A program made the position numbers and the translations under genes. From a virus (lineage: Duplodnaviria; Caudoviricetes): DNA of 52,482 bases. The number at the start of each line of letters is the position of its first letter. The first letter of the stretch is position 1. The stretch spans positions 1 to 52,482 of IMG/VR virus record IMGVR_UViG_3300005253_000354; one strand, 5' to 3'. Under the pieces are notes generated by a model. It was given only the letters and a program-made list of their open reading frames with translations. It was not told where the DNA came from and ran no database searches. Below are positions 2,477 to 48,579 of the stretch, in pieces.

Positions 2477-3130
2477 ATGAGCATCGAGACGCCGATCGCC
2501 GACACGGCTGCGGAGATCGTGGGCGTCCGAGCGGCTGCGCGCGCTCTGGATATCAACCCCTCGACGGTCAGTCGCTACCTCAAAGACTTCCCGGAGCTCA
2601 ACCAGGGCGACGAGGTCGGCCCGAAGGTCGACCCCGAGGCGCTGCGCCGACACCGGTTGGCGAACATCAACCAGGCGCGTTCGGGGAGTCACGGCGGACG
2701 GCTGTTGGGTGAGAGTGCGCCGGCGCCCGCCGGCGAGGATCTGGCACCCGCCGGCGGCGGCGATGCAACGGTCACGAACAAGGCGAGAAAGGAAGCCGAG
2801 GCGCCGAGCTATGCGGTGGCGAAAGCGGTCCGCGAGACGGTGCTCGCCCAGCGGGCGCGGATCGATCTCGACGAAAAACGCGGTCTCTTGGTCGTGCGCC
2901 AAGAGATCGAGGACGCGATCTTCGAGGCCGGGACCGTCCTGCAGCGCGAGCTCCTCGAGCTCGGCTCGCAGTTGTCCGACCGTCTGGCTGCGATGGACTC
3001 TCCGCGGGAGATCGCGCTCTTGCTTGAGGGCGAGCACCGCCGCGTCCTGGCCGGCCTGGCGGCCACCCTTCGGGCGTCCGCCCGGTCGGACGAGGCGCAG
3101 GATAAAGCCATTGCGTTCGCCGAGGTCTAA
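2477..3130 (+). CDS. terS: Terminase small subunit (Nu1-like)
   Basis: N-terminal HTH (VRAAARALDINPSTVSRY), coiled coil with EKRGLLV motif, overlaps the large subunit. Confidence 0.8.
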   Translation: MSIETPIADTAAEIVGVRAAARALDINPSTVSRYLKDFPELNQGDEVGPKVDPEALRRHRLANINQARSGSHGGRLLGESAPAPAGEDLAPAGGGDATVTNKARKEAEAPSYAVAKAVRETVLAQRARIDLDEKRGLLVVRQEIEDAIFEAGTVLQRELLELGSQLSDRLAAMDSPREIALLLEGEHRRVLAGLAATLRASARSDEAQDKAIAFAEV

Positions 3131-8969: not shown

Positions 8970-9986
8970 ATGCTCGACATCTTCACGGACGACGCCTTCA
9001 GCCTCGTCCCACTGACGGACGCAATCAACAAGCTCAAGTTCGTTCCCGGCCTGATCGGGAGCATGAACTTGTTCGTGGAGAGCGGCGTTCCGGCGACCTC
9101 TATCGCGCTCGAGGAGCGCGATGGCATCCTGGTCCTGGTCGCGCCCACCCCGCGCGGCGGCCCGGGTACGACGATCGACAAGCGCAAGCGGAACTTACGC
9201 AGCGTGGTGGTCCCGCATTTCGAGATCGACGACGCGATCATGGCCGAGGAGGTCCAGGGCGTGCGCCAATGGGGGTCCGAAACCGCGCTCGAGTCGGTCA
9301 TGGGCCAGGTCTCGGAGCGTGTCGCGGTCCACTCGCAGTCGCTCGAGGCGACCCAGGAGTTCTCGCGCATCGGCGCAGTCAAGGGGATCGTCACCTACGC
9401 CGACAATACGACGCTGAACCTGTTCGAGCTGTTCGGCGTGACCCAGGAAACCGAGATCAACTTCGATCTGGACAACGCGAGTCCCGCCGCGGGCGCGCTG
9501 CGCAGGGCCTGCGGCAAAGTCATCCGGCAGATCGCGGGCATCCTCGAGGGCGTACCGTTCACCGGCGTTCACGCCTTCACCGGCGACAATTTCTACGACG
9601 ACTTGATCGCGAACACGGAGGTGCGCGAGACGTTCCTGCGTCAAACAGAGGCCAAGGAGCTGCGGACCGGCTACGTCGACGGCGGGCAGTCGTTCGGGTC
9701 CTTCGAGTTCGGCGGGATCGTCTGGCAGAACTATCGCGGCAAGGTCGGCACGACGGACTTCGTCGACACCGACAAGGCGCACATCTTCCCGGTCGGCGTG
9801 CCCAACTTGTTTCGGACCTACTTCGCGCCGGCGGATTACGTCGAGACGGTGAACACGCTCGGCCGCCGGCTCACGGCCAAGCAGTTCCCGATGCCGAACG
9901 ACAAGGGCGTCGAGCTCGAAGTGCAGATGAACACGCTCAATCTCTGCACGCGGCCGCAGTCCCTGGTCCCGGGCAAGCGTACCTGA
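8970..9986 (+). CDS. Major capsid protein (lambda gpE-like)
   Basis: DIFTDDAFSL..LTDAIN, PRGGPG, TYFAPAD, EVQMNTLNLCTRP. Confidence 0.95.
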   Translation: MLDIFTDDAFSLVPLTDAINKLKFVPGLIGSMNLFVESGVPATSIALEERDGILVLVAPTPRGGPGTTIDKRKRNLRSVVVPHFEIDDAIMAEEVQGVRQWGSETALESVMGQVSERVAVHSQSLEATQEFSRIGAVKGIVTYADNTTLNLFELFGVTQETEINFDLDNASPAAGALRRACGKVIRQIAGILEGVPFTGVHAFTGDNFYDDLIANTEVRETFLRQTEAKELRTGYVDGGQSFGSFEFGGIVWQNYRGKVGTTDFVDTDKAHIFPVGVPNLFRTYFAPADYVETVNTLGRRLTAKQFPMPNDKGVELEVQMNTLNLCTRPQSLVPGKRT

Positions 9987-21576: not shown

Positions 21577-23859
21577 ATGGCCAAATCCCGAACCACCCTC
21601 AAGCAGCGCATCGCCCTCGACGGCGGCAAGGACATCGAGGAGGAGCTCGCCAAGATCGGCAAGGTCGGCGAGAAGGCCTTCGCGCTCCTGAAGAAATCCG
21701 CCAAGGAATTCGAGGGCCCGGGCAAGCGCCTGTCGGCCGCGGTCAACCGGCTCAAGAACCGGATGCTTCTATTGCGCGCGGCGGGCAAGCGGGTCGGCGA
21801 TTCCTTCCGCAACATGGCCCGGCGCGGCCGGGCGCTGCGCCAGGGCCTGGTGCGCATCGGGCGCAACCTGGCGCTCGTCGGTGCCGCCGGCCTGGCGGCC
21901 GCGGCGGCGCTCTTCAAATTGGCCAAGTCCGGGGCGGCGGCGGCGGATGCCGCCGGCAAGACCGCGCAGGGCGTGGGCCTGACGGTCACCGAACTGGGCC
22001 GCCTGGTCTTCGCCGCCGAACAGTCGGGGATCTCCCAGGAAAAGTTCCTGAACATACTCACCCGCTTCAACCAGGGGCTCGGCGAGCTGGCGGAGGAGGA
22101 GCGCAAGGCCGGCAAAGCCACCAAGAAGACGGGCGATCTGACGGACCGTGCCCGGGAGGCCTACGATCAGTTCGGGGTCACGGTGCGCGATATGAGCAAG
22201 GAACTCGCCGGCACCGCCAAGGGCTTAATCGATGTCGACGCCACGGGCACCCTGGCCGCGCGCGCGCTGAAAGGTGCCGGCATCACGGCCCTGGACGCTA
22301 CCGGCAACATGAAGCCGCTGGTCGGCCAGATCCTCGAGTTTGCTAACGCCTTCGCTGGCGTGCCCGCCGGGGTCGAGAAGGTGAAATCCCTGATCGACAT
22401 CACCGGGACGCGCAATGCGCGGCTCGCCGCCCCGTTCTTCAACCAGACCGCCGCCGGCATCCGGAACCTGGGCGACGAGGCCGAGAGACTCGGCGTGGTC
22501 TTCTCGGAGAGAGATTTCAAATCCGGCCGCGATACGATCGATGCTTTGAACAGGGCCGTGGTCTCGCTCGTCGGCAGCGGGGTCCTCAAAGGCCTGACCG
22601 ACGAGATCGGCTTGATCTTCAATGAGGATTTGAGCCGTGCCGCGGACGCTTTCACCGCGGCGCTCCGACGCAACCGCGATGCCATCGTAGCGTTTTCCGA
22701 AGGTAAAATTAGGCAGGCGATCTCGCTGGTCGAGGACCTGGTGGCTGCCATCCAGTTCCGCGATGTCGATGTGAGCGAGAGTGGCGCGTTCATTCTCGAG
22801 GCGCGCGACGCCGTGATCGCCTTCGCCCAGGACGTTAAGGCCGCCTTCGACGATGTCATCGTGCCGGCGTTCGAGGCGCTGGTCGAGGCCGCCGACTTCG
22901 TCGCCGGGGCGCTGAACGATGTTTTCGGGACCGATCTCACCGGCCGGCAACTCCTGATCGCCGCCGTGGTCGCGCAACTGCTCGGCATCTTTACCGCGCT
23001 CGCGTCCGTGGTCGGCCTGGTGGCCGCGGGTTTCGTGGCGTTCGCCGCCGTCGGCAGCTTGGTCGTTAACGCAATCGGCGTCATTGCCGCCGCCGCCGGC
23101 GTGCTCTCCGCGGCACTGCTCGCCATCGGCGCCATCCCCGCGCTCATCGTCGCCGGGCTGGCGGCGGCCGTCGTTGCGATCGTCGTCTTCTGGGACGACA
23201 TCACGGCCGCTGCCCAAGCCGCCTGGACCTTCATCACCGGGCTCTGGGGCGATCTGGCCGACGTCCTGGGCGGCTTCGCCGACGCCGCGGCCGAGCGCCT
23301 GGTAGCTGCGTTCCGCGGCGCCGTGGCGACCATCAAAAGCCTCCTGAGCAGTCTGATTTCCTTGGCAAGGCGCGCCTTCAAGGCCGCCAGGGAGGCGCTC
23401 GGCCTCTCGGGCGGCGGCAGCGCGTCGGGCGCCGGGGTGCCGGTCCTGGCCGGCGGCGGCGCGGTGCGCGGGCCGGGCACGCCGACCTCGGACTCGATCC
23501 TGGCGCGGCTGTCCGATAAGGAGTTCGTCATCCAGGCCCGGGCGGTGCGGCACTACGGCGCCAACCTCTTCGCGGCCCTCAACTCCATGCGCCTGCCCAA
23601 GTTCTCCGGCGGCGGCTTGGCGGAGGGCATCGCCCGATCGCTCACTTTGCCGCTCATGCCGATCCCCGTCTTCGCGGCCGGCGGCCCCGTCAACGTGCCG
23701 GCGCTGGCCCCGGCGGGCAAGGCCGGGACTCCGTTCACCATCGTCCTCGATGGCCAGAGCTTCCCGGCGCGGGCCGACCAGGAGGTCGCCGAGGCGCTCG
23801 GCCGCGTTGCCTTGAGCCAGGCGCGCGCCAGCGCCGGCCGGCCACCCAGGAGGCTGTGA
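21577..23859 (+). CDS. Tape measure protein
   Basis: Long Ala-rich helical protein with hydrophobic stretch and AGGGAVRGPGTPTSDSILARLSDKEFV motif. Confidence 0.92.
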   Translation: MAKSRTTLKQRIALDGGKDIEEELAKIGKVGEKAFALLKKSAKEFEGPGKRLSAAVNRLKNRMLLLRAAGKRVGDSFRNMARRGRALRQGLVRIGRNLALVGAAGLAAAAALFKLAKSGAAAADAAGKTAQGVGLTVTELGRLVFAAEQSGISQEKFLNILTRFNQGLGELAEEERKAGKATKKTGDLTDRAREAYDQFGVTVRDMSKELAGTAKGLIDVDATGTLAARALKGAGITALDATGNMKPLVGQILEFANAFAGVPAGVEKVKSLIDITGTRNARLAAPFFNQTAAGIRNLGDEAERLGVVFSERDFKSGRDTIDALNRAVVSLVGSGVLKGLTDEIGLIFNEDLSRAADAFTAALRRNRDAIVAFSEGKIRQAISLVEDLVAAIQFRDVDVSESGAFILEARDAVIAFAQDVKAAFDDVIVPAFEALVEAADFVAGALNDVFGTDLTGRQLLIAAVVAQLLGIFTALASVVGLVAAGFVAFAAVGSLVVNAIGVIAAAAGVLSAALLAIGAIPALIVAGLAAAVVAIVVFWDDITAAAQAAWTFITGLWGDLADVLGGFADAAAERLVAAFRGAVATIKSLLSSLISLARRAFKAAREALGLSGGGSASGAGVPVLAGGGAVRGPGTPTSDSILARLSDKEFVIQARAVRHYGANLFAALNSMRLPKFSGGGLAEGIARSLTLPLMPIPVFAAGGPVNVPALAPAGKAGTPFTIVLDGQSFPARADQEVAEALGRVALSQARASAGRPPRRL

Positions 23860-32183: not shown

Positions 32184-32423
32184 CTCCCCGGGTCTCCCCG
32201 GGTAACACCCGGAACGAACCGGAACCAGGCGGAACCAGCCGGAATCCGACGGTCCGCGCGGATCGGACGATTGTAAAGATTTACAAGGACTTAGTGCTGC
32301 CGCGCGAAGGAAACGAGAAGAAAATCAACCCTCCCCCTCACCCTGGGACGGGGCGAACGCCATTGTTGATTTAAGTTGATTTAACTCGATTTACGGCGCT
32401 TGCCCCGGGTTCCTCCCCGGGTC
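32184..32423. other. Putative attP region
   Basis: At the integrase 3' end; tandem CCCCGGGT sites at 32184-32203 and 32403-32423, CGGAAC repeats, inverted repeat TTGTAAA-GA-TTTACAA at 32271-32286, GTTGATTTAA x2 at 32365-32384. Confidence 0.55.
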
Positions 32424-33421
32424 TTGGCCGCCGTGCGCGCCGGCAGCAGGCCGATCACGCGGCGCGCGTGGCGGGCGTCGGTGGCGATGTAGGCGGCGAT
32501 CGACTTCTCGGACAGCCAGGTGCCGGCGTCCTTGATGCCGCGCGCCGTGACCAGGGCCTGGTCCAGGTCGCCGGCGAACAGGCGGCGCGCCATGTGCGGG
32601 GTGAAATAGACCCCGGCCGCCGCACACACCGGCTTGAGGTCGTCGTAGAGGCGCTGGCGCCGGCGCCAGGGGAAGACGTAATCGTCGGGATCAAGATTCT
32701 TGACCCGCCGGCGCAGCATGGCCCGGGTCCGGGCGTGCAGCTCGATCGCCTTCCAGGCGCGCGACTTGGGGATCCAGACGTCGGCCTGGCGATCGGCCAG
32801 GCGCAGATGGCGGACTTTGAGCGAGAGCGTCTCGCCGACGCGCCAGCCCTGGTGCAGGACCAGGACCAGCCAGTCCTCGACGTCGCCCTCGGCGGCGCGC
32901 AACAGCGCCGCGACCGCTTGCGGAGAGGGGCGCGGGCGCTCCGGCTCGGCCTCCTTTAGGCGGCGGATGGTGAGGTACGGGCAGAGCGCCGGCCAGTTCT
33001 CGGAACCGAAGTGGAGGATGGCGGCGGCGGGGGCCACGACCTGGCGGTTCTTGGTGGCGGCCTTGGCGTTCGGATAGAGGACGTGGGCGGCGGCGTGGAT
33101 GTCGGCGGCGGTGAGATCAGCCACGGGGCGGGCGCCGAGCAGGTCCTCGAGGCGGGCGATGTAGCGGCGCTCGTCCCGGCCCGGACGGCGCGCGGCGCGG
33201 TAGCGCGCGGCTATCTCGGCGAAGGTCTTGGGTGGCGCCGGCGCGGGAACGCGATGACCGAGGCGCTTGGCGGCCTCGAATTCCCCTGCAAGGCATCGCG
33301 CAGCTCGGCGGTCCCGTGCCGCTTCGAGGACGAACTCCCACTCCTCGGTTCCGAGATAGACCCGGGCGAGCCAGTGCCGGTTGCCCTTGCGGGTGCCGGG
33401 TGGGTAGACGGTGAACCCCAT
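32381..33421 (-). CDS. int: Tyrosine integrase
   Basis: GWRVGE (R), PKS (K), HMARR (HxxR), GTW, AAY (Y). Confidence 0.9.
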   Translation of the reverse strand: MGFTVYPPGTRKGNRHWLARVYLGTEEWEFVLEAARDRRAARCLAGEFEAAKRLGHRVPAPAPPKTFAEIAARYRAARRPGRDERRYIARLEDLLGARPVADLTAADIHAAAHVLYPNAKAATKNRQVVAPAAAILHFGSENWPALCPYLTIRRLKEAEPERPRPSPQAVAALLRAAEGDVEDWLVLVLHQGWRVGETLSLKVRHLRLADRQADVWIPKSRAWKAIELHARTRAMLRRRVKNLDPDDYVFPWRRRQRLYDDLKPVCAAAGVYFTPHMARRLFAGDLDQALVTARGIKDAGTWLSEKSIAAYIATDARHARRVIGLLPARTAAKTRGGTRGKRRKSS

Positions 33422-34817: not shown

Positions 34818-35579
34818 TCAGTTGGCTGGCTTGCAACTCCAGAAGCCGCAGGGGTTGACCAAGTAAAGGCCATTGGGCCGGCGGGTTACGCGGTATTCCC
34901 ATAAAAGCAGGTCTTTGCCGAGCGGGCCGCAAAACACGCGAATGGCCCTGCCGCGATTGGTCTCCCTGTCCGGATAGGCCACCGTTACCGAGGGGCAGTT
35001 ATAGCCGCCCGAATCGATGACCCCGGCCAGAGTCCGTTTTACCCCCGGTGTGAGGTCGATCCCCTGGGGCAGCGCAGCCGCTCGTTCTTGTTTCGCCTTT
35101 TTCGCTGCCTCTTCAGCCTCCATCTCCAAGTTTTCGATGTGCTTGGCTTCTTTCACGCCCCGGGCTTCCCTCACGGGCTTGGCCTCTTCCAGGCGCTCGG
35201 CTTCCGCGAGGCGCGCGGCTTCTTTCAAGCGTTCGGCTTCTTTCAGACGCGCCGCCTCCTTCGCTCGCTTGGCCGCCTCGACACGCCGGGCTTGTTCCAC
35301 GCGCTCGGCTTCCGTGACGCGCGCGGCTTCTTTCACCCGCTGAGCCTCTTCCGCGGCGCCCGTCGAAACCAGGGCGGCGTCGTCAACCGCGGCGACGTCG
35401 GTCTCCGGGCTGCTCGCGGCGTGTAAGAACGCGCCGAAATTAACCATCAGAAGCCCCGCCAGCGCAACGACCGCACCGTCCTTGCGGCTTCTGATTCTGA
35501 ATATGGTGAGTGGCTTGATGACAGAGATGGCGCCGACGAGAAGGACGACAAAGCCGGCCAAAAACAATGCCGTGCCCAT
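34818..35579 (-). CDS. Membrane protein with two TM helices and a 6-aa repeat coiled coil
   Basis: N-terminal TMs; EAARLK/EAERLK repeats; Cys-containing C-terminal domain. Confidence 0.7.
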   Translation of the reverse strand: MGTALFLAGFVVLLVGAISVIKPLTIFRIRSRKDGAVVALAGLLMVNFGAFLHAASSPETDVAAVDDAALVSTGAAEEAQRVKEAARVTEAERVEQARRVEAAKRAKEAARLKEAERLKEAARLAEAERLEEAKPVREARGVKEAKHIENLEMEAEEAAKKAKQERAAALPQGIDLTPGVKRTLAGVIDSGGYNCPSVTVAYPDRETNRGRAIRVFCGPLGKDLLLWEYRVTRRPNGLYLVNPCGFWSCKPAN

Positions 35580-35591
35580 GGACAGTCGTCC

Positions 35592-36164
35592 CTACGCCCC
35601 GGCTTGGCTGCGGCCTGTGAGGATGGCCGCACGTTGGCGCTGTAGCCACAAGCCTCGGCGCCGGAGCGCGCGCTTCGCCAGCTCGTGATATTCGGCCTCC
35701 GAGGCCACCTTGCCGATCTCTTCGTGCATCTGGGCGGCGGCCGTAACCAGCTCGCGCGTCTCCAAGGGCAAGCGCTCAGCCTGGTGCAAAGTCTGCAACT
35801 CCTCCGCCAGCCACCCGAGAAGTTCCGCAAGATCCACGGGCACCGCCTCGACCAGGTGCGGCTTGGCCGTGGCCGGCATGCGTTCGTAGTCGGCACCCCG
35901 ATCGCCTAGCCCGGTCACGGGCAGCAATTCCCAATCCTCGAGGCCGAGTTCTGCCGCGATGGCGGGGCGGTCGTCCTCGTCGAGCTTCCAGGGCGAGCGC
36001 TTCCAAATGTAGTCGTCAATGAATTTGGAATTGCGGTGTCGGCCGCCGCGCTTGGGGAGTGCGCGGGTCAACTCCGCGAGCGTCTTCCCCAACTTGGCGG
36101 CGCGATCAACGATCAAGCGCCGGGTCGCGTCGAGATTCTCGATATCACGCTTCGCCTCTCCCAT
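35592..36164 (-). CDS. CI-like repressor
   Basis: Divergent from a Cro-like gene; N-terminal XRE-like region (TLAELTRAL..DYIWKRSP..L..DR..IA..LG). Confidence 0.65.
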   Translation of the reverse strand: MGEAKRDIENLDATRRLIVDRAAKLGKTLAELTRALPKRGGRHRNSKFIDDYIWKRSPWKLDEDDRPAIAAELGLEDWELLPVTGLGDRGADYERMPATAKPHLVEAVPVDLAELLGWLAEELQTLHQAERLPLETRELVTAAAQMHEEIGKVASEAEYHELAKRALRRRGLWLQRQRAAILTGRSQAGA

Positions 36165-36189
36165 GGCTCCTAGGCTGCGCCGGAACCTC

Positions 36190-36248
36190 GGAAATTTCCA
36201 ATGTGACTTTTCCGATTGACAGATTCGGAAATTTCCCATAGATATGGT
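36190..36248 (+). promoter_or_regulatory. PR-like promoter with operators
   Basis: Perfect TTGACA at 36216-36221; GGAAATTTCC palindromes at 36190-36199 and 36227-36236. Confidence 0.75.
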
Positions 36249-36308
36249 GGTCTGCAAGGTCCAGACCGCTAGATCATGTACAAATGTCCGATTCTGAAAA
36301 TCATGAAA

Positions 36309-36647
36309 ATGTCTCATACAGAACAGTTCTTGTCCGAGGTTCACGATTTCGTGAACGAGACTGGGATAAGTCCAACGGCGCTTGGCAAGGCCGCCGTCGG
36401 CGATGGCTCGATCATCGTCGAGGTGAGAAACGGCCGCAGCCCGACGCTGCGGACCGTCGACAAGATCACCACCTACATGGCCGCCGAGCGCCTGCGCCGC
36501 GCCGAGGCCGGCGCGCGGCGCAGCACGGCCTGCGAAGCCCTGGTGCCCCAGCAGGTCGAAAGAGAGGTCTATCGCGCAGCCACGCGCGCCTTGAACCGCC
36601 TCGGTACCGGCTGGCGCGCGCGCCTGTTGCGGTGGTTCCGGCCATGA
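36309..36647 (+). CDS. Cro-like protein
   Basis: FLSEV..F..TGISPTALGKAAVGD..VRNGRSPTLRTVDK, typical of alphaproteobacterial phage Cro-like proteins. Confidence 0.8.
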   Translation: MSHTEQFLSEVHDFVNETGISPTALGKAAVGDGSIIVEVRNGRSPTLRTVDKITTYMAAERLRRAEAGARRSTACEALVPQQVEREVYRAATRALNRLGTGWRARLLRWFRP

Positions 36648-36678
36648 GCCGGGCGAAGCCCAAGCAAGGAAAAATCAC

Positions 36679-37053
36679 GTGATCAGCGCCGAAGAAGTGG
36701 ACGCCAACTATGCCGAGCTCAGCGCTCAGATCGACCGCCTGGAGGAACTTGAGATGCCCGCATGGTCAGGCACAGAAGTCGGAAGTCAGAAGCCGGAAGC
36801 TGTGGCGCCCGCCCCGAGATGTATCGGATGCCGTTACTTTCTCCGTTTTGACGTCGAATTCGATCCTGGGCATTGCCACCGTCACGCGCCGACCGCCGGC
36901 AAGAGGGGTACTGCCCAATGGCCCTCAGTGTGGGGCGAGTATTGGTGCGGGGACTTCGAGGAGGTCTGCGAAGCGTCCACCCTGGCGGCGGCGGATCGTC
37001 GAGCTGCGCCATCGGGCTTCTGGGCGCGGGTCCTGGGGTGGTTCCGAGGGTGA
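36679..37053 (+). CDS. Hypothetical Cys-rich protein
   Basis: CIGC..GHCHRHAP..WP..WCGDF. Confidence 0.65.
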   Translation: MISAEEVDANYAELSAQIDRLEELEMPAWSGTEVGSQKPEAVAPAPRCIGCRYFLRFDVEFDPGHCHRHAPTAGKRGTAQWPSVWGEYWCGDFEEVCEASTLAAADRRAAPSGFWARVLGWFRG

Positions 37054-37092
37054 GGAGCCGACCGCCGGGCGTTTAGACCGAAAGGACCGATC

Positions 37093-37665
37093 ATGGAGAC
37101 CATCCACTACGAGATCACCGGGACCGCGCCGCTGCTGATGCAGTCGGAGCGCACGGTGAACCCCTTCGACCCGCTGACCAAAGCGATGAAGGTGATTACC
37201 GGCAAGAAAAAGAAGACCGAGGAGGACAAGATGGATCTGGCCCGCCTGGAGTTCGAGGCCGGGCTGTATTTCGACGCCGATCTCGGCCCCTACATCCCCG
37301 GCCTCAACCTGGACGCGATGATCCGCGACGCGGCGAAACTGTCCAAGCTCGGCAAGGCGGTCCAGCGCGGCACCATGGTGGTCGAGGACAAGAACCGGCT
37401 CGAGTACGACGGCCCACGCTCTATCGCCAAGCTGTGGGCGGACGAGCGCTTCGTCGATCTCAGGAGCGCAGTCGTCCAGCGCGCCCGGATAATGCGCTGC
37501 CGGCCGATCTTCCGCGCCTGGCGGGTCGCCTTCACCGTGGCCTTGGACCCGAAGATCCTGGACGCCGCCGAAGTCCGCCGGATCGTCACCGACGCCGGGC
37601 GTTACATCGGCCTGGGCACCTATCGGCCGCGCTTCGGCCGCTTCGAGGTAACCGGCGATGATTAG
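37093..37665 (+). CDS. Stand-alone RAMP (Cas7/Csm3-like) RNA-binding protein
   Basis: N-terminal strand EITGTAPLLM, YIPG..AMIRDAA, RCRPIF..W, C-terminal Gly-rich loop AGRYIGLGTYRPRFGRFEV. Confidence 0.75.
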   Translation: METIHYEITGTAPLLMQSERTVNPFDPLTKAMKVITGKKKKTEEDKMDLARLEFEAGLYFDADLGPYIPGLNLDAMIRDAAKLSKLGKAVQRGTMVVEDKNRLEYDGPRSIAKLWADERFVDLRSAVVQRARIMRCRPIFRAWRVAFTVALDPKILDAAEVRRIVTDAGRYIGLGTYRPRFGRFEVTGDD

Positions 37666-37669
37666 TTGT

Positions 37670-38408
37670 AGCGCGGCTCTGCATAGCACGGCCGGGCTGG
37701 GCCGGGCGAGGCAGGGCAAGGCACGGAGAGTTCGGCGATTTTCACGACGGTGCGGCATGGTGTGGTCCGGCCTGGTTTGGCAAGGCTCGGCCCGGCGCCG
37801 CTCGGCTTGGCACGGCTTGGCACGGCTTGGCACGGAGATTTGAATGATTAGCGAGGTTGTGGCGCTGCTGGGCGCGGCGCGGCTGGGCCGGGCGGGGCAA
37901 GGCTTTGCTGGGTGCGGCATGGCGGGGCGCGGCACGGAGATTTTGACGATTGTCACGAGTTCATCGCGGCGTGGCCGTGCATTGCCCGGCACAGCTTGGC
38001 ATGGCGCGGCTTGGCCTGGCGAGGCACGGAGACTTTGCGGATTTCACGCGGCTCGGCGGGGCAGGGCCAGGCCTGGCCTGGCAGGGCACGGCCTGGCGGG
38101 GCAAGGCACGGAAACTTTGCAGATACCACGCGGCGCCGCTTGGTTTGGCCTTGCTGGGCTCGGAGCGGCTGGGCAAGGCAGGGCGCGGCTTGGCACGGAG
38201 ATTTCAGGAATTTTACGCGGCAGGGCGCGGCGGCGCGTGGCCAGGCCCGGCTCGGCGTGGCAAGCCGCAGCTCGGCTGGGCGCGGCTCGGCCAGGCCCGG
38301 CAAGGCACGGAGACTTTGCGGATTTCACTCGGCGCGGCAAGGCATGGCGGGGCAAGGTCCGGCGGGGCGAGGCGCGGCGGGGCTTGGCAAGGGACGGGGA
38401 TTTGAATC
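37670..38408 (+). ncRNA. Array of 8 putative guide-RNA units, (GGY-NN)n-GGAGA-linker
   Basis: Units start at 37670, 37749, 37861, 37968, 38050, 38132, 38219, 38331 with 11, 17, 15, 12, 12, 13, 18, 13 pentamers; the repeat structure is certain, RNA function is inferred. Confidence 0.75.
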
Positions 38409-38945
38409 ATGATCGAGGCTAAACCGATCGAGGTGCATCCGGCCTGGCGCCAAGCGCTGGCCGGGTTCCACGAGCAGGGCTTCGAGGCCGGCGACCTGGT
38501 CGGCTTCGACTGGCTCTACGAAGCGTTCAAGATCACCCGGCCGGGACCGGCGACGCGCTACGAGGACGCCAAGAAGGCCGAGCTCGCCTTCGTCGCCGCG
38601 ATGGAGCCGTTCCGCGGCGCCCTGCTGCGCGAGCACCAGATAGCGCTCGATAACGTGCGCGGCCAAGGTTACCGGATCGTGCCGCCGCCCGAGCAGACCG
38701 AGTGGGCCGAGACGGCGGGGCTGCGCGAGGCCAAGCGCGCGCTCGGCAAGATGGGGCACCGGCTCAGCTTCGTCGACATGCGGCAATTGAACGCCGCCGA
38801 GCGGCGCGCCAACGCCGACGCCTTAACGCGGTACGCCATGCTCGCCGGCCTCACCAAACGCATCGAGAAGGTCCGGCGCGAGCCCGAGGCGGTCCTTGCG
38901 GCCGACGAAGCGGCTCGCGCAATTGGCGGGCCCAATGATGCCTGA
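38409..38945 (+). CDS. Accessory protein with winged-helix-like motif, coupled to the array
   Basis: NVRGQGYRIV wing motif, helical C-terminus; its RBS is the end of the last array unit. Confidence 0.7.
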   Translation: MIEAKPIEVHPAWRQALAGFHEQGFEAGDLVGFDWLYEAFKITRPGPATRYEDAKKAELAFVAAMEPFRGALLREHQIALDNVRGQGYRIVPPPEQTEWAETAGLREAKRALGKMGHRLSFVDMRQLNAAERRANADALTRYAMLAGLTKRIEKVRREPEAVLAADEAARAIGGPNDA

Positions 38946-39177
38946 TCCCCGATCCCTGGCCTCTGGAACCCCCTTCACCTGCCCCGGCTGCGGCGCCGAG
39001 ACCGACGACCTCGATGCGCTCGCCGAGACCTGTGTCGATTACGTCTCCGGCATCGGCCGCTGCCCGGCGCGCGCCGAGGTCCTGGACCGCCGGCGCCGGT
39101 GCCAGCACTTCCGCCAGCTCCTCGCCGGTGATCCGGTGGGCGAGCCGTTCATCGCCGGCGACGGAGGGCCGGTATGA
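38935..39177 (+). CDS. Small Zn-binding hypothetical protein
   Basis: CPGC plus further Cys; overlaps its neighbours. Confidence 0.5.
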   Translation: MMPDPRSLASGTPFTCPGCGAETDDLDALAETCVDYVSGIGRCPARAEVLDRRRRCQHFRQLLAGDPVGEPFIAGDGGPV

Positions 39178-39641
39178 CCGCAATCCGTCAAACGCGCGCC
39201 GCTGCCGGCCAACCCGGCGCGCAGCAAATCCCCGCCACCTCGGTCAACCCGGCCTATTGGGCGGTGGTGCAGGGCCGGCTTGCGGGCGCGCACCCGGAGA
39301 CGCCAACGGCCGTCAACCCGCACCGCATCCGCGACGCAGGCGGCAGGTTAATCAAGACATGCCGCTCGCGGACCAGCCGGGCCCTGGCGCTGTGCTGGGA
39401 CTACGGCTTCGCCGGCATGCCGCGCGCGCGGCCGAAACCCCGTGACACAGTTTCACGTGGAACAACGCTCCGGCCGCCGCGCGACGATTGGCGGGACCAC
39501 GAAATCGAGGTGCTGCGGCTGGCGCGCTCGGGCGGCCAAGGCCACCTGAGCGACCGGCAACTCGCGGTCATCGTCGGCAAGAGCCACGACGCGGTGCGCG
39601 CGAAGCTGGCGCGCGGGCGGCGCTTGAGCGAGAGAGCGTGA
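39174..39641 (+). CDS. Hypothetical protein with C-terminal HTH
   Basis: WRDHEIEVL..SDRQLAVIVGKSHDAVRAK. Confidence 0.6.
   Translation: MTAIRQTRAAAGQPGAQQIPATSVNPAYWAVVQGRLAGAHPETPTAVNPHRIRDAGGRLIKTCRSRTSRALALCWDYGFAGMPRARPKPRDTVSRGTTLRPPRDDWRDHEIEVLRLARSGGQGHLSDRQLAVIVGKSHDAVRAKLARGRRLSERA
39449..39464. promoter_or_regulatory. parS-like site AGTTTCACGTGGAACA
   Basis: 15/16 match to the bacterial parS variant TGTTTCACGTGGAACA. Confidence 0.55.
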
Positions 39642-40046: not shown

Positions 40047-40366
40047 GCCGGCCTCCGGAGCGGACGCTTGGCGAGACCGAGCTGCGCGCGCCGCGCCGCC
40101 GGCATCACTCGAACCCGGCATCCGACACCCAGGACCCGCCGCGCGCGAGCGACGCGCTGGTCCGGGCCGCCGACCGCGCGCTCGAGGCGGCGTGCCATTT
40201 CATCGACGGGGATCTCGACTACGGCGCCCTGCGCCTGCTGGCCCAGCGCTACCGCGCCGAGGTCGAGCGCGCGGGGCTGGCGACGGCGCGCGCCGGGGTT
40301 GGCCAGGGCGGCCGGCGCAACGAAAAGAAGTCCCATTTCGTACAATCTGACCCATCGGAAGATTGA
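40043..40366 (+). CDS. Hypothetical protein
   Basis: Overlapping starts and stops within the early operon. Confidence 0.5.
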   Translation: MSRPPERTLGETELRAPRRRHHSNPASDTQDPPRASDALVRAADRALEAACHFIDGDLDYGALRLLAQRYRAEVERAGLATARAGVGQGGRRNEKKSHFVQSDPSED

Positions 40367-41247
40367 TGGCCGAAAACAGCAAAATCGAGTGGACGGACGC
40401 GACCTGGAACCCCGTCGTCGGCTGCTCGGTCGTCTCGCCCGGCTGCACCAACTGCTATGCCATGCGCATGGCCGGAACGCGGCTCAAGACGACGAAGCCC
40501 TACAGCGGGCTCACCCAGGATACCAAGGCTGGGCCCGTCTGGACCGGCGCGGTGCGGTTCCTCGAGGAGCGTCTTACCCAACCGCTCAAGTGGCGCAAGC
40601 CGCGACGGGTGTTCGTGAACTCCATGGGAGACCTGTTCCATGAGGATGTGCCCGATGATTGGATCGATAAGGTCTTTGCCGTGATGGCTGCCTCGCCGCG
40701 CCACACCTTCCAGGTTCTGACCAAGCGGCCGGAGCGGATGCGCGAGCATGTGCTCCGCCTTTCGAGGACCATAAACCCGCTCGAAGCGGAAGCCCGTGCG
40801 TTCGGCCACACCTTCAATTTCGAGGGTCATTCGCTCCTGCGTTGGCCGATCCCAAATATCTGGCTCGGCACATCGGTCGAGGACCAGCGCCGCGCGGATG
40901 AGCGGATGCCCCATCTGCTGAACGCGCCGGCAGCAGTGCGGTTCCTGTCGTGTGAACCCCTGCTAGGGCCGATTGACTTGCGGGAAGTATCAACCGCAGG
41001 CGTGGGTGCCGCCGCTGGGAACAAGATGGCCGACTGCCTTCATTGGGTCATCGCCGGCGGCGAGAGCGGCCCGCGCGCGCGGGGCATGGATCCAGCCTGG
41101 CCACGATCGATCAGAGACCAATGCCGAGAGGCGGGCGTGCCGTTCTTCATGAAGCAGATGTCGCGCAAGGCGCCGATCCCCGCCGATCTCATGGTGCGGG
41201 AATTTCCAAGGTCGGATTCTGCACCAAGTAGCGAGGAGCCGAAATAG
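40366..41247 (+). CDS. DUF5131 / phage Gp37-Gp68 family protein
   Basis: SKIEWTDATWNPVVGC..SPGCTNCYA, FVNSMGDLFH, LTKRP, SCEPLLG, GGESG, PFFMKQ. Confidence 0.93.
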   Translation: MAENSKIEWTDATWNPVVGCSVVSPGCTNCYAMRMAGTRLKTTKPYSGLTQDTKAGPVWTGAVRFLEERLTQPLKWRKPRRVFVNSMGDLFHEDVPDDWIDKVFAVMAASPRHTFQVLTKRPERMREHVLRLSRTINPLEAEARAFGHTFNFEGHSLLRWPIPNIWLGTSVEDQRRADERMPHLLNAPAAVRFLSCEPLLGPIDLREVSTAGVGAAAGNKMADCLHWVIAGGESGPRARGMDPAWPRSIRDQCREAGVPFFMKQMSRKAPIPADLMVREFPRSDSAPSSEEPK

Positions 41248-42023
41248 TGGCCCGAATCATCTCCTGGTTTAGCTGCGGAGCACCTAGCGCGGTGGCCACC
41301 AAATTGGCCCGCCCGGACGTGATCGCCTATTGCGAAGTCAAGGAGGAGCACCCGGACAACATGCGGTTCCTGCGTGATTGCGAGAAGTGGTTTGGCCAGG
41401 AAGTTCTGATCCTGGGGAACGACAAATACGGCCGCTCGGCCCGTGAGGTTTGGCGGCAAACCCGATTCCTGGTTGGCCCCACGGGCGCCCGTTGCACCAC
41501 CGAGCTGAAGAAGAAGGTTCGCCAGCAATTTCAAGAGCCGGATGATGTGATTGTGATGGGCTACACGGCCGATGAAACCGACCGGGTTGCGAAGTTCCAG
41601 GGGGCCAATGCCGAGGGGCATAACCTCTGGCCTATCCTGATTGAGCGAGGTCTGACCCGAAGCGACTGCAAGGCCGTGGTCGAGAGGGCGGGCATCGAAC
41701 TTCCGGCCATGTACCTCCTGGGCTATCGGAACAACAACTGCATCGGCTGCATCAAGGGCCAGGCCGGCTACTGGAACAAGATCAAGGACGATTTCCCCGA
41801 GGATTTCCAGGAAACAGCCCAGATCGAGGCGGAACTAGGGCGCACTATCTGCAAGCGGGAATGGACCAATGGAGGCGGTGAGCGGCAGCTAGAGCGGTTT
41901 CCGTTGACTGAGTTGCCGCCGGACCTCGGCGACTATCCCAACGAGACGGATATCGAGTGCAGCCTGTTCTGCCGGATGGCCGAGCAAGATATGTCCGTTA
42001 TTGACACTCAGGAGAAGGGTTGA
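41247..42023 (+). CDS. PP-loop (PAPS reductase-like) protein with Cys clusters
   Basis: SWFSCGAPSAVA, EHPDN.RF, CTTELKK, NNNCIGCIKG, ECSLFC. Confidence 0.75.
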   Translation: MARIISWFSCGAPSAVATKLARPDVIAYCEVKEEHPDNMRFLRDCEKWFGQEVLILGNDKYGRSAREVWRQTRFLVGPTGARCTTELKKKVRQQFQEPDDVIVMGYTADETDRVAKFQGANAEGHNLWPILIERGLTRSDCKAVVERAGIELPAMYLLGYRNNNCIGCIKGQAGYWNKIKDDFPEDFQETAQIEAELGRTICKREWTNGGGERQLERFPLTELPPDLGDYPNETDIECSLFCRMAEQDMSVIDTQEKG

Positions 42024-43763: not shown

Positions 43764-43792
43764 ATTGCGCCAGCTAGGCCCGAGGAAGATTG

Positions 43793-44689
43793 ATGCCCAG
43801 AATCGCGTCAAAATCAGCTTCTGAACCGAGACGGCCGGCGTTACGCTGGCACGGCGGGAAGTGGCTGCTCGCGCCCTGGATCATCGAACATTTCCCGGCG
43901 CACCGGATCTACGTTGAGCCTTTTGGTGGGGCAGCCTCGGTACTAATCCGCAAGCCGAGATGCTACGGCGAGGTCTACAATGACCTGGATGGCGAGGCGG
44001 TCAATCTGTTCCAGGTGCTGCGCTCCGATCGCGCCAGCGAGCTGGTCGAGAATTTGCGCCTGACCCCCTTCGCGCGGGAGGAATTCGAAGCGGCATACCA
44101 GCCCGGCCAGGATCCTGTGGAGCGCGCCCGATGCCTAGTGGTGAGGTCCTTCCAGGGGTTCGGATCGGACGGCTTCAACCTAGGCGCGCGGCGAACCGGC
44201 TTCCGGGCGAACGCCAATCGCAATGGTACGACGCCGGCGCAGGACTGGGCCAACTATCCGGAAGCCCTCGGCGCCTTGATCGAGCGATTCCAGGGCGTGG
44301 TGATCGAGAGCCGGGACGCACAGGGCTGCATGGGTCAGCACGACGGACCGGGCACGCTGCACTACGTTGACCCGCCCTATCTGCCGGAAACACGGTCGAC
44401 CAAGAAAAAGAACGGCGAGCGGTATCACGCCTACGCGCATGAGCTGACGGCCGAGGACCACGCCGATCTCTTGGCCTACATCCAGGACCTCAAGGGAATG
44501 GTGGTGCTCTCAGGCTATCCCTCGGCGCTCTACGACGACGCGCTGCCGGCGTGGTTCCGCGTCGAGCGCAAGGCCCTGGCGGACGGCGCCCGTGAGCGTA
44601 CCGAGGTCCTGTGGGTCAACCCGGCAGGATGGCGGGCGCGCGACCATGGGCTGTTCGGTGGGTCGGTTTGTGAGGCACCCGATGGTTGA
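43793..44689 (+). CDS. Dam-like (D12 class) DNA adenine methyltransferase
   Basis: WHGGKW, YVEPFGGAASV, EVYNDLD, YVDPPY. Confidence 0.93.
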   Translation: MPRIASKSASEPRRPALRWHGGKWLLAPWIIEHFPAHRIYVEPFGGAASVLIRKPRCYGEVYNDLDGEAVNLFQVLRSDRASELVENLRLTPFAREEFEAAYQPGQDPVERARCLVVRSFQGFGSDGFNLGARRTGFRANANRNGTTPAQDWANYPEALGALIERFQGVVIESRDAQGCMGQHDGPGTLHYVDPPYLPETRSTKKKNGERYHAYAHELTAEDHADLLAYIQDLKGMVVLSGYPSALYDDALPAWFRVERKALADGARERTEVLWVNPAGWRARDHGLFGGSVCEAPDG

Positions 44690-45928: not shown

Positions 45929-46101
45929 GGTCGAGATGAGTTTCGCACACCCCGTTTTTAGCCCCCCGAGCACCAGAACCGTGCCTGGTGATATAATGCG
46001 ACAGCCTTACGGGGCAGCGCGGCGTGCGGAACTGTGGTGCAAAACCCCGATTCCGGCTATGCCGCGGAAACCCATGGAGAAAAGTACAGGGGGGAATCGC
46101 G

Positions 46102-46740
46102 ATGCTGATCGGATATGCACGGGTCTCGACCGAAGACCAGAACCTCAATCTACAGCGGGACGCCCTCAAAAAACACGGCGTCGAACCGGATCAAATTTAC
46201 GAGGAACATATCTCCGGCACCAAGGCCAACCGGCCCGAGTTGATGGCCTGCCTGCGGGCGCTGCGGGAGGCCGACGTGTTGGTGGTCTGGCGGCTGGATC
46301 GCCTGGGGCGCTCGCTGCCGGACCTGATCAAGATCATCAACGACCTGAGCGAGCGCAAGATCGGCTTCAAGAGCCTGACCGAGGAGATCGACACCACCAC
46401 GGCCGGCGGCAGGCTGATCTTCCACGTCTTCGGGGCCGTGGCGCAGTTCGAGCGGGATCTGGTGTCCGAGCGCACCAAGGCGGGCCTCAAGGCCGCCAGG
46501 GACCGCGGCAAGCGCGGGGGCCGGCCGGCGAAGCTCAAAGCCAAAGACGTGCGGATGATAAAGCAGCTCCTCAAGGACAAGACCGTCACCAAGGGCGATA
46601 TCGCCAAGCGGTTCGGCGTGAGCCGCGCCACGGTCCACCGAGAGCTTTTGAAGAACCGGAAGGACACCGAGGCCAAGGAACTGGATCGGCTTCTCAAGGC
46701 CCAGAAGCGGGCCGCGAAGGCGGGAAAACAGAAGGAATGA
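46102..46740 (+). CDS. Serine recombinase (resolvase/invertase family)
   Basis: MLIGYARVSTEDQ, VWRLDRLGRS, IDTTTAGGRLIF, ERTKAGL..GGRP, C-terminal HTH. Confidence 0.96.
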   Translation: MLIGYARVSTEDQNLNLQRDALKKHGVEPDQIYEEHISGTKANRPELMACLRALREADVLVVWRLDRLGRSLPDLIKIINDLSERKIGFKSLTEEIDTTTAGGRLIFHVFGAVAQFERDLVSERTKAGLKAARDRGKRGGRPAKLKAKDVRMIKQLLKDKTVTKGDIAKRFGVSRATVHRELLKNRKDTEAKELDRLLKAQKRAAKAGKQKE

Positions 46741-46939: not shown

Positions 46940-47350
46940 ATGGCCCGTTTTGATGACATCTCTATCGGCGCCCAACTCATGCGTACATACACGATGCGCG
47001 GATGGCGTGGCGGCATTGATGATACCAGCGGGCCGCCGACCGATCTGTCTCAACAAACTTGGTATTACATCGTGACCGATCTTTGGTTTGATCCCGTCAA
47101 AGGCGATACCAACCCGAAGAAAGGGCAGATGGTCGGCGTGCGGCGCCTTAACGGTCACGGTGAAGCCTTTGGGCGCAAGCAAGGACACACTCGGCGGGGT
47201 CTTGCCTCAAACGGATTTCACTACGCCGACCGAGATTACATCTCCGAATGCAAAGCCTTCCTTGCAGCGAAGGAGGAAGGCAAAGTCGTTGGCATCGGGA
47301 TGGGTCTGGTTCTTCGCCAGCGTCCAAAACTGCCGGGGCACAGATTGTAA
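46940..47350 (+). CDS. Hypothetical protein
   Basis: Lower-GC ORF with WYYIVTDLWFDP. Confidence 0.65.
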   Translation: MARFDDISIGAQLMRTYTMRGWRGGIDDTSGPPTDLSQQTWYYIVTDLWFDPVKGDTNPKKGQMVGVRRLNGHGEAFGRKQGHTRRGLASNGFHYADRDYISECKAFLAAKEEGKVVGIGMGLVLRQRPKLPGHRL

Positions 47351-47386
47351 TTGGAAAGTGCGAAATAGAGCGCAAGGAGCTACAGC

Positions 47387-47590
47387 ATGAGCCTTTGGAA
47401 AGCGATCTTGAAGTGCAGCGATTGCGGTCAGACGCTCAACACGGCCGAGCATGTGCCGAAGGATCAAAAGGGTCGAGTAGCGATGTCGAGCGGGTTCGCC
47501 GCCGGCTCTTGCCCAAGAGGCTGTCGTGCAACCTTCTCCGATTTGAATCTCAATACCGACCTAGAATGGGTCGAGGAAGCCGGCGCATAA
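47387..47590 (+). CDS. Zn-ribbon protein
   Basis: CSDC..CPRGC; AAGGAG RBS. Confidence 0.6.
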   Translation: MSLWKAILKCSDCGQTLNTAEHVPKDQKGRVAMSSGFAAGSCPRGCRATFSDLNLNTDLEWVEEAGA

Positions 47591-47607
47591 AGGAGGCCTT
47601 CCGCCCC

Positions 47608-48579
47608 ATGACCGCACCCGCCGAAACCCCCGACATCGACGCCCTCGCGCGCAGGATCGGCGCCGCCTGGCGGCGCGGGGTCGAGGCGATCCTGGAGACC
47701 GGCGGGCTGATGGCGCAAGCGCGCGAGGACTTGGGCGACGACGATTGGGCGGCGTTCATCGTGCGGCTGCCCTTCGGGCCGCGCTACGCCCGGATGCTGG
47801 TGCGGATTGGGGCCGATTCGCGACTAGGGAAACACGTTTCCCTGCTGCCGACCGATACGCTCATCATCTACAACATCACCCAACTCTCCGACCAGAGATT
47901 CGACGAGCTCAAGGCTGCCGACGCGATCCACCCGGGCATGGCGCGGGGCGATCTCGACACATTATCGAAGGCGGACGCGCGGGCCGACAAAGAGCGCGAT
48001 TTGGGCGCGCGCACGGCGGCGGGCAACGCGGAGCTCGCCGAGCGCGGATCCTGGCGCAAGTACAACGTGATTTATGCGGATCCGGCCTGGCGCTTCGAGA
48101 CATACAGCGCCAAGGGCAAGCGCAAGTCGGCGGATAATCACTATCCAACCATGTCCACTGACGAGATCGGCGCGCTCGAGGTAGGCGGCTTGGCGGCTGC
48201 GGACTGTGCGCTGTTCCTCTGGGCGACCGTGCCCCTGCTGGTCGAGGCCGGCATGACGCTGGCCGCCTGGGGCTTCCGCTACAAGAGCCACTTCGTGTGG
48301 GTCAAGGACAAGGCCGGGACCGGCTACTGGAACCGCAACCGCCACGAGCTCCTGCTGGTCGGGACGCGCGGGGCGATCCCGGCGCCGGCGCCCGGCACTC
48401 AGGTCGACAGCGTGCTCGAAACCGCGCCGGGCGAGGTCCTGGCGCACAGCCAGAAGCCGCAGTCCGCGTGCGCCATGATCGAGGCCTATTACCCGAGCTG
48501 CCCCAAGATCGAGCTATTTGCCCGGCCGCCGGCCGCCGACGGTTGGGACCTTTGGGGGAACGAGGCACCAGCGCCATGA
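47608..48579 (+). CDS. MT-A70 family adenine methyltransferase with N-terminal helical domain
   Basis: IYADPAW, HYPTM, LFLW, WGFRYK, HELLLVG, HSQKP, IELFAR, WGNE. Confidence 0.92.
   Translation: MTAPAETPDIDALARRIGAAWRRGVEAILETGGLMAQAREDLGDDDWAAFIVRLPFGPRYARMLVRIGADSRLGKHVSLLPTDTLIIYNITQLSDQRFDELKAADAIHPGMARGDLDTLSKADARADKERDLGARTAAGNAELAERGSWRKYNVIYADPAWRFETYSAKGKRKSADNHYPTMSTDEIGALEVGGLAAADCALFLWATVPLLVEAGMTLAAWGFRYKSHFVWVKDKAGTGYWNRNRHELLLVGTRGAIPAPAPGTQVDSVLETAPGEVLAHSQKPQSACAMIEAYYPSCPKIELFARPPAADGWDLWGNEAPAP

Follow-up and report, generated by a model that had tools for sequence, protein, structure and literature searches.

The virus record IMGVR_UViG_3300005253_000354 of IMG/VR, analysed here over its whole length of 52,482 bases (the window), carries between positions 37093 and 38945 a locus in which a gene for a small Cas7-like protein is followed by a tract of GGY-NN pentamers and by a second, accessory gene. 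The locus is read as a VIPR (Viral Interference Programmable Repeat) system, type II-like and borne by a temperate phage, in which at least guide 2 of the eight predicted guides would serve in competition between phages, and the probability of this reading is put at nearly nine in ten. Homology, the predicted fold, the accessory gene, the grammar of the array and one target that conforms to the published rule together support a VIPR-type RNA-guided system. VIPR has been described, with 664 published loci, in bioRxiv preprints of 2026 (10.64898/2026.04.26.720920, 10.64898/2026.04.26.720927, 10.64898/2026.10.15.759431), it is mentioned in a fourth, and its experiments cover two clades, that of Escherichia phage phiSUSP1 (SUSP1) and that of a P. 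fulva prophage. An earlier note on this DNA, made from the letters alone, had likened the locus to such systems and supposed that it may be a new member rather than something wholly undescribed. The comparison was right, as the systems exist in print (10.64898/2026.04.26.720920) and the SUSP1 Vipr and Vap1 proteins are homologous to those of the window.

The mode of action proposed for the locus follows what the preprints describe for its homologues in SUSP1 and in the prophage of P. fulva. Each guide RNA would be covered by a polymer of Vipr, with one protomer to every pentamer, each of them holding the GGY and presenting the NN pair; the resulting filament would bind double-stranded DNA, with consecutive NN pairs separated by one skipped base, and this binding would silence transcription. 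The suggestion of the earlier note that one protomer binds each GGY and offers NN for pairing agrees with the cryo-electron microscopy preprint (10.64898/2026.04.26.720927).

The Vipr protein and the accessory gene

The 190-amino-acid open reading frame (ORF) that opens the locus ends, as had been described, in a glycine-rich stretch (...AGRYIGLGTYRPRFGRFEVTGDD). It has no Pfam match and is not recognised by the Cas models of PADLOC, and it belongs to phrog_4652 (E 9.6e-60), a family annotated as of unknown function that also contains the SUSP1 Vipr (E 1.4e-96). Direct comparison with the phiSUSP1 gene gives 35.3% identity at 98% query coverage (E 5e-32), and of 50,697 phage records searched in translation, 131 contain a match. 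The nearest protein, with 79% identity, lies on a contig of only 1032 nucleotides, and the homologue loci found in assembled collections show 39-51% identity in metagenome_contigs and viral_contigs and 47-49% in genome_contigs.

The structure of the protein was modelled with AlphaFold2 from an alignment of 85 homologues (mean pLDDT 96.1, pTM 0.89); this model replaced a single-sequence fold that was unusable (pLDDT 33). When the model was searched with Foldseek against the PDB, 41 matches were obtained at E <= 0.001, and among the matches listed all were CRISPR effector chains, the first being a type III-B Cmr chain (E 1.7e-5) and the best ones Cmr and Csm RAMP chains. An independent structure alignment with VIA-align against 48,161 representative chains placed CRISPR-Cas effector chains at all ranks from 1 to 23, headed by 6s6b_I (Z 11.3, root-mean-square deviation 3.4, 148 residues aligned) and including Csm3 (9g9a_D, Z 10.5) and the Cas7 domains of gRAMP (Z about 10), and the first chain from outside CRISPR, an RNase P protein, appeared at rank 24 with Z 7.7. 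The model has a single RRM core, a C-terminal glycine-rich loop and, at residues 121-140, a beta-hairpin in the thumb position. Model and alignments thus agree with the earlier expectation of a RAMP/Cas7 fold, and the predicted fold of the window protein is that of the Cas7/Csm3/Cmr4 (RAMP) proteins in its minimal form.

The glycine-rich loop of the window protein (G173-F184) aligns with that of SUSP1, where the residues contacting GGY are H17, D177, R138, W178, R179 and K33 (10.64898/2026.04.26.720927). Three of these residues are kept here, namely K33, R138 (R137 in the window protein) and R179 (R178), and W178 is replaced by Y177. Among the 85 homologues R137 and R178 are invariant, and K33 is found in 78. 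The two remaining residues, which are exchanged in the window protein, are taken up below.

The second gene of the locus encodes a protein for which no Pfam match was found, and whose PHROG family, phrog_5926, also holds the SUSP1 Vap1 (E 1.1e-75). In BLASTP comparisons it is 30% identical to SUSP1 agp038 (E 1e-12), and 37% identical both to Medea1_0008 of Pseudomonas phage Medea1 (E 1e-31) and to P21_8 of Pseudomonas phage LESphi2 (E 1e-28); a vap1 homologue also lies directly downstream of a vipr homologue in two bacterial genomes. This homology to genes that follow vipr in other phages and in the two genomes identifies the predicted gene as the type II accessory gene vap1, which is next to vipr in the window as well, with the array between the two genes. 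The structural neighbours of Vap1 are viral hypothetical proteins, and winged-helix regulators come up only below the threshold (TM 0.33-0.36).

The pentamer array and the target predicted for guide 2

With the last base of the vipr stop codon at 37665 and the start of the phased pentamers at 37670, the two are separated by the four bases that had been noticed before. From there to 38408, over 739 nucleotides, GGC or GGT recurs every five bases. A regular expression for the anchor that closes each unit found eight of them, at 37720, 37829, 37931, 38023, 38105, 38192, 38304 and 38391, six reading GGCAC-GGAGA, one GGCAC-GGAAA and one GGGAC-GGGGA, so that the array consists of eight head-to-tail units of 11-18 pentamers each; the boundaries of the corresponding vrRNAs, the guide RNAs (Table 1), are deduced from the sequence. 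The earlier description, with eight phased units ending in GGCAC-GGAGA or a near variant and linkers of 17-27 nucleotides, holds (of the seven internal units, four have a linker of 17 nucleotides after GGAGA and three a longer one), and its hand count of about 95 GGY pentamers in 111 was correct in the 95 and short in the total, which is 113.

The fixed and the free positions of the pentamer are sharply separated. In the 105 variable units G takes the first position 91 times and the second 102 times, the third holds C 96 times and T 8 times, and positions 4-5 are near-uniform (G 58, C 56, T 54, A 42). Within a region of 732 nucleotides, 76 GGY triplets are followed by another exactly five nucleotides on; equal-sized windows elsewhere in the contig, of which 1006 were taken from both strands, contain at most 10 such pairs, 1000 first-order Markov shuffles contain at most 14, and the opposite strand of the array itself contains four such pairs. 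The periodicity of the array is far beyond chance. Tandem Repeats Finder reports periods of 5, 10, 15 and 20 and nothing else, and the PADLOC models find no Cas protein among 50 ORFs of the contig at E <= 1e-5, in accordance with the earlier statement that cas1/cas2 and a classical CRISPR repeat are missing. The 52-kb contig has no CRISPR repeat-spacer array, no adaptation genes and no multi-subunit effector, which sets the locus apart from CRISPR-Cas class 1, and the absence of a CRISPR array and of other cas genes in a viral context is a feature of VIPR, as are homology to a characterised Vipr and tandem GGY-NN runs of at least 4 units on the vipr strand with hypervariable NN, both of which are found here.

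Arrays of this kind accompany the relatives of vipr, as had also been anticipated. The sample comprised 44 vipr-homologue loci (3 phage records, 2 genome contigs, 15 viral contigs and 24 metagenome contigs), which were not dereplicated, some being the same contig in two collections, and the array caller covered 1.5 kb upstream to 2.5 kb downstream of vipr. GGY-NN tracts were found on the strand of the gene in 30/44 loci and on the opposite strand in 0/44. Most of them lie about 500 nucleotides downstream, after vap1, or upstream of vipr, and it is only in a few distant relatives (39-49% identity) that tracts begin less than 200 nucleotides from the vipr stop. One of these (L020 / L043 1688-2359), a relative with 31% G+C whose C-terminal part is 39% identical, also has a compact array immediately after vipr, with five to six long GGT-NN tracts of 14-26 units that start 48 nucleotides after the gene and have short AT-rich tails.

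Each repeat tract of the window is followed by an invariable 3' tail, which is again a VIPR feature. In four of the seven internal units the tail after GGCAC is exactly 22 nucleotides long (GGAGA-CTTTGCGGATTTCACGC or a variant) and the next tract begins immediately behind it. Alignment of the eight unit ends leaves 14 of 42 columns invariant, with GGCAC GGAGA yTTTG..GAT as common motif; the motif GGCACGGAGAYTTTGNNGAT had no match in viral_contigs and none in the relatives that were fetched, and no Rfam family, hammerhead included, was found in 36000-39500 at E <= 1. All eight tracts are closed by a GGR pentamer (GGAGA, GGAAA or GGGGA). In the relatives (loci L001-L044) the in-phase pentamer after the tract is GGR in 20/57 distinct tracts, and the one before the tract in 3/57. 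As the third-base pocket of Vipr excludes purines (10.64898/2026.04.26.720927), a terminal GGR unit may act as a stop signal at which the filament ends.

The array also bears traces of its own growth. Guide 2 ends (37804-37833) in three copies of GGCTT-GGCAC, which have the look of a slippage duplication, and the tail of unit 2 at 37834-37856 (GGAGATTTGAATGATTAGCGAGG) resembles the tail of unit 8 together with the start of vap1 at 38396-38420 (GGGGATTTGAATCATGATCGAGG). This resemblance suggests that the array grew by a duplication that took in the array-vap1 junction.

Targets were searched on both strands under the published 1-nucleotide-skip rule (xNN), in which NN is kept and each GGY becomes one free base. 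In the collections only exact patterns were used, so imperfect targets would escape. Units 1-10 of guide 2, with 20 fixed bases, gave one match in viral_contigs, on an IMG/VR contig of 6972 nucleotides. Units 11-14, which were outside the query, match there too in 8/8 bases (across 575 kb of sequence, this 8-base pattern turns up at a rate of 1.7e-5 per position), and units 1-14 together match 28/28 informative bases at L051:651-692. When the guide is taken without its constant last unit, 29/32 bases match, and the maximum reached by 300 shuffled guides on the same contig is 22. The match ends within the triplicated GGCTT-GGCAC stretch, as would be given by slippage duplication of the end of the guide.

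The site lies inside an ORF of 584 amino acids that belongs to phrog_4523, 'major head and protease protein' (E 3.9e-176), and all 14 skipped bases are third positions of codons; in natural VIPR targets the skipped base is likewise found at the wobble position (10.64898/2026.04.26.720920). In the target phage, portal and terminase show a distant relationship to their counterparts in the window phage (translated pieces being about 35-60% identical), the capsid genes of the two phages are unrelated, and among cultured relatives of the target gene the best has 42% identity. The 14-unit pattern, with up to 3 mismatches allowed, occurs in 0/401 Pseudomonadota genomes. In our reading, at least guide 2 is predicted to aim at the essential protease-major-capsid gene of a competing uncultured phage, which would place this guide in inter-phage competition.

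Alternative readings, guide release and genomic setting

Several observations weigh against the reading of the locus as a working VIPR system directed at other phages. A target obeying the rule, with the skip at wobble positions, is predicted for just one guide of eight. Guides 4, 5, 6 and 8 (full-length, exact) and units 5-14 of guide 7 gave nothing in viral_contigs, guides 1 and 3 being left out of that search, and on the 6972-nucleotide target fragment, which is about one-sixth of that phage, the other seven guides score at null level. Neither has a host been found: the best match of the phage's own capsid protein in the 401 Pseudomonadota genomes has 56% identity, and there is nothing closer in 301 genomes of the order of that match. 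The tails are without predicted structure, as RNAalifold finds 0 pairs in them and their single folds have z from -2.0 to +1.7, 7/8 being no better than shuffles. In contrast, SUSP1 tails form a pseudoknot (10.64898/2026.04.26.720920), and those of LESphi2, judged by eye, contain inverted repeats of the GCTGC...GCAGC kind; a tail hairpin or pseudoknot is a feature of the SUSP1 clade and does not define the family. None of the listed sequencing runs that hold the locus is an RNA run. Finally, T176 sits where the alanine mutant D177A was dead in SUSP1, and H17 is Q in the window.

An alternative that we regard as improbable is that the same VIPR machinery controls genes of the phage itself or of its host, for instance in the choice between lysis and lysogeny, instead of acting against competing phages. 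The position of the locus suits this possibility, since it lies about 3.7 kb from the integrase gene, in a rightward gene block whose start is a divergent junction near 36300, and seven of the eight guides have no target in the sequence searched. However, against the 52-kb genome of the phage itself none of the guides scores better than shuffled guides do (best scores 58-68% of informative positions), in agreement with the VIPR preprint, which reports that self-targeting is absent (10.64898/2026.04.26.720920). Moreover, the single strong match is to a capsid gene of a foreign phage, and the targets reported for type II systems in nature are for the most part satellites and prophages (10.64898/2026.04.26.720920).

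Less probable still, and in our opinion very unlikely, is a decaying or inactive remnant, in which the aspartate that reads the first G of the pentamer has been lost, the array has been padded by slippage and the guides are dead. In SUSP1 this first G is bound by H17 and D177, and D177A abolishes silencing (10.64898/2026.04.26.720927), and the window protein has Q17 and T176 at these places (codons 37141-37143 and 37618-37620). The triplicated end of guide 2 and the degenerate pentamers with which several units start point in the same direction. Yet the pairs formed by residues 17 and 176 in the 85 homologues are H/D in 46, Q/T in 34, H/E in 3, C/D in 1 and H/M in 1, so that Q17 and T176 are coupled, neither being seen without the other. 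This recurrence argues for a working alternative pocket, and the Q/T pair looks like another way of reading the first G that has been conserved. Nor does the exchange depend on the compact array, as Q/T relatives with the usual arrays after vap1 exist. Besides, the vipr and vap1 ORFs are intact, with coding-like G+C at third codon positions (0.91 and 0.88), GGY is kept in most pentamers, and a perfect match over 28 informative bases to a phage gene would not be expected of a drifting guide.

That the tract is no guide array at all, being instead a repeat at the DNA level (a G-rich structure or iterons for protein binding) or coding sequence of low complexity, is scarcely credible, for although three plus frames and one minus frame are open across it, a 5-nucleotide period cannot hold a reading frame, a crude composition filter kept no coding-like ORF between 37666 and 38408, the arrays beside vipr homologues are confined to the strand of the gene, and the SUSP1 arrays correspond to sequenced, Vipr-bound RNAs (10.64898/2026.04.26.720920). 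The spurious ORFs are 36925-37992 (minus strand, 355 amino acids), 37844-38422 (plus, 192), 37912-38412 (plus, 166) and 37950-38405 (plus, 151); they arise because GGY-NN repeats contain no stop codons, and gene callers may annotate them as Gly/Ala/Arg-rich proteins.

If the locus is a VIPR system, as preferred here, its guides have to be made from an array that has no promoter-like or terminator-like site of its own. No terminator-like site was found in 35500-39300, and the plus strand of that interval has a single weak promoter-like site, at 38384-38413, over the start of vap1. This points to one transcript in which the array would be transcribed together with vipr and vap1, and the position of the locus would make it an early one. 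The transcript might then be cut in its short, unstructured, AU-richer 22-nucleotide tails to yield eight guides, a step that is pure inference. Host RNases could trim the parts not covered by the Vipr filament, and the exposed tails would be the obvious cutting place for a host endonuclease. At the end of each tract, the GGR pentamer (GGAGA) would be rejected by the pyrimidine pocket, and the filament may stop there. The tail of vrRNA8, GGGGA TTTGAATC, which reaches the start codon of vap1, looks as if it doubles as the ribosome-binding site of that gene.

A more specific proposal, which is tentative and has the odds against it, is that we have here a sub-type of type II VIPR in which guides are produced by a route peculiar to it. 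Its eight guides would be carried inside the vipr-vap1 mRNA without promoters, terminators or structured tails and be cut in the 22-nucleotide single-stranded tail by a host RNase or by a Cas6-like activity of Vipr; the last tail, as ribosome-binding site of vap1, would couple guide release to Vap1 translation, and the first G would be read by a Q17/T176 pocket.

The cassette appears to be exchanged as a whole. DNA contigs of four sequencing runs were compared with the locus, and in run X7, from another study, a contig of 4748 nucleotides keeps both flanks (36500-37043 and 38969-39167) with few differences, and 1941 other letters replace 37044-38968, an interval that coincides exactly with the cassette of vipr, array and vap1. 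In several runs, short contigs connect portions of the array to other GGY-NN runs. Taken together, these contigs make the cassette look like an exchangeable module among related phages and indicate that variant arrays are present in the same habitat.

The contig that carries the locus has 66.5% G+C and comes from marine sediment, and by its PHROG matches, which include tailed-phage structural genes and an integrase, it is a temperate tailed phage (Table 1). The earlier note had placed the locus two genes downstream of cro, an identification that found no support: ORF 36276-36647 has neither a Pfam nor a PHROG match and is simply the first gene of the rightward block, so that position alone fits 'cro', and the divergent ORF 35592-36341 has no family match either. 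Downstream of the locus lies a gene pair (40363-42020) that may together form a DNA-modification module. Its first gene (40363-41244) belongs to phrog_2045 and matches the PADLOC candidate-defence models PDC-M41B (E 1e-73) and PDC-M30B (E 1e-68), and the second (41247-42020) encodes a PAPS-reductase-like, SspD-like protein.

Table 1. Coordinates of the VIPR locus and of other annotated features of the window
Feature	Position	Strand	Description	Basis
vipr	37093..37665	+	190-aa Vipr protein, minimal Cas7-like RAMP	homology and model
vrRNA1 (predicted)	37670..37748	+	11 pentamers 37670-37724, tail 37725-37748; first four pentamers degenerate	
vrRNA2 (predicted)	37749..37855	+	17 pentamers 37749-37833, tail 37834-37855; predicted target	
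vrRNA3 (predicted)	37856..37962	+	16 pentamers 37856-37935, tail 37936-37962	
vrRNA4 (predicted)	37963..38049	+	13 pentamers 37963-38027, 22-nt tail 38028-38049	
vrRNA5 (predicted)	38050..38131	+	12 pentamers 38050-38109, 22-nt tail 38110-38131	
vrRNA6 (predicted)	38132..38218	+	13 pentamers 38132-38196, 22-nt tail 38197-38218	
vrRNA7 (predicted)	38219..38330	+	18 pentamers 38219-38308, 22-nt tail 38309-38330	
vrRNA8 (predicted)	38331..38408	+	13 pentamers 38331-38395; tail reaches vap1 start codon	
vap1 homologue	38409..38945	+	178-aa accessory protein	phrog_5926, E 6.2e-26
large terminase	2709-5192			PHROG match
portal, head protease, HNH endonuclease, replication initiator	on contig			PHROG matches
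major head protein	8970-9983			PHROG match
tape measure	21577-23856			PHROG match
integrase	32381-33418	-		PHROG match
two DNA methyltransferases	43790-44686 and 47248-48576		late-right part of contig	
DNA invertase	46024-46737		late-right part of contig	

Comparison with known systems

The RAMP proteins of CRISPR class 1 (Csm3, Cmr4 and the Cas7 domains of gRAMP/Cas7-11) have the same fold as the modelled window Vipr, with Z 9-11 over 130-156 residues, and like it a C-terminal glycine-rich loop and a beta-hairpin in the place of the thumb, at a sequence identity of 10-16%. The window differs from these systems in being without a repeat-spacer array, cas1/cas2 and partner subunits. Its array advances by 5 nucleotides with 2 read bases, whereas the backbone of CRISPR class 1 has a 6-nucleotide step with 5 read bases.

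SUSP1 carries one of the closest known systems. Vipr and Vap1 are homologous in both and fall in the same two PHROG families, phrog_4652 and phrog_5926, although the identity is just 35% for Vipr and 30% for Vap1. Both have GGY-NN pentamer guides on the gene strand with a tail beginning with GGR, both are phage-borne without a CRISPR array or cas genes, and the target predicted for the window obeys the published 1-nucleotide-skip rule, with the skip at the wobble position. The layout is different. In the SUSP1 record vipr is directly followed by a gene of 146 amino acids, and one GGT-NN tract lies upstream and three lie downstream of vipr-vap1, which matches the vipr, vap1 and four vrRNAs given in the preprint (10.64898/2026.04.26.720920). 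The SUSP1 guides are about 150 nucleotides apart and have tails of roughly 40 nucleotides, in contrast to eight abutting guides between vipr and vap1 with tails of roughly 22 nucleotides in the window. Repeats are GGT-rich in SUSP1 and GGC-rich in the window, H17/D177 of SUSP1 stand against Q17/T176, and SUSP1 is, by the taxonomy of its record, a lytic Ounavirinae phage, whereas the window contig encodes an integrase.

The Pseudomonas phages LESphi2 and Medea1 are closer, with 42% and 51% identity in Vipr, respectively, and 37% in Vap1. They are the nearest available records to the P. fulva prophage clade, to which LESphi2 may itself belong. The LESphi2 locus adjoins the CI/Cro genes of a temperate phage, and its repeats are GGC-rich as in the window. 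The place of the array varies among the three, with three arrays upstream of vipr in LESphi2, one after vap1 in Medea1 and the array between the two genes in the window. The 'staggered' vrRNA arrays mentioned in a figure legend (fig. S18) of the VIPR preprint are also similar in that guides abut, the end of one being the start of the next; these overlap by 1 nucleotide, unlike the window, where a conserved 22-nucleotide tail stands between the repeat tracts.

VIPR is a kind of system already known, to which this locus adds another example that leaves the general picture unchanged, and what is of interest in the locus itself is modest. Its compact array would be a natural case of many guides packed without individual promoters, terminators or structured tails, and as such it bears on guide maturation and on the design of compact multiplexed arrays. 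The Q/T pair offers a natural variant of the pocket for the first G, at a position where the SUSP1 alanine mutant is inactive. The predicted target is statistically clean and falls in a structural gene, for a protease-capsid protein, and not in a regulator or a satellite recombinase. Finally, a related phage from another study has the whole cassette swapped.

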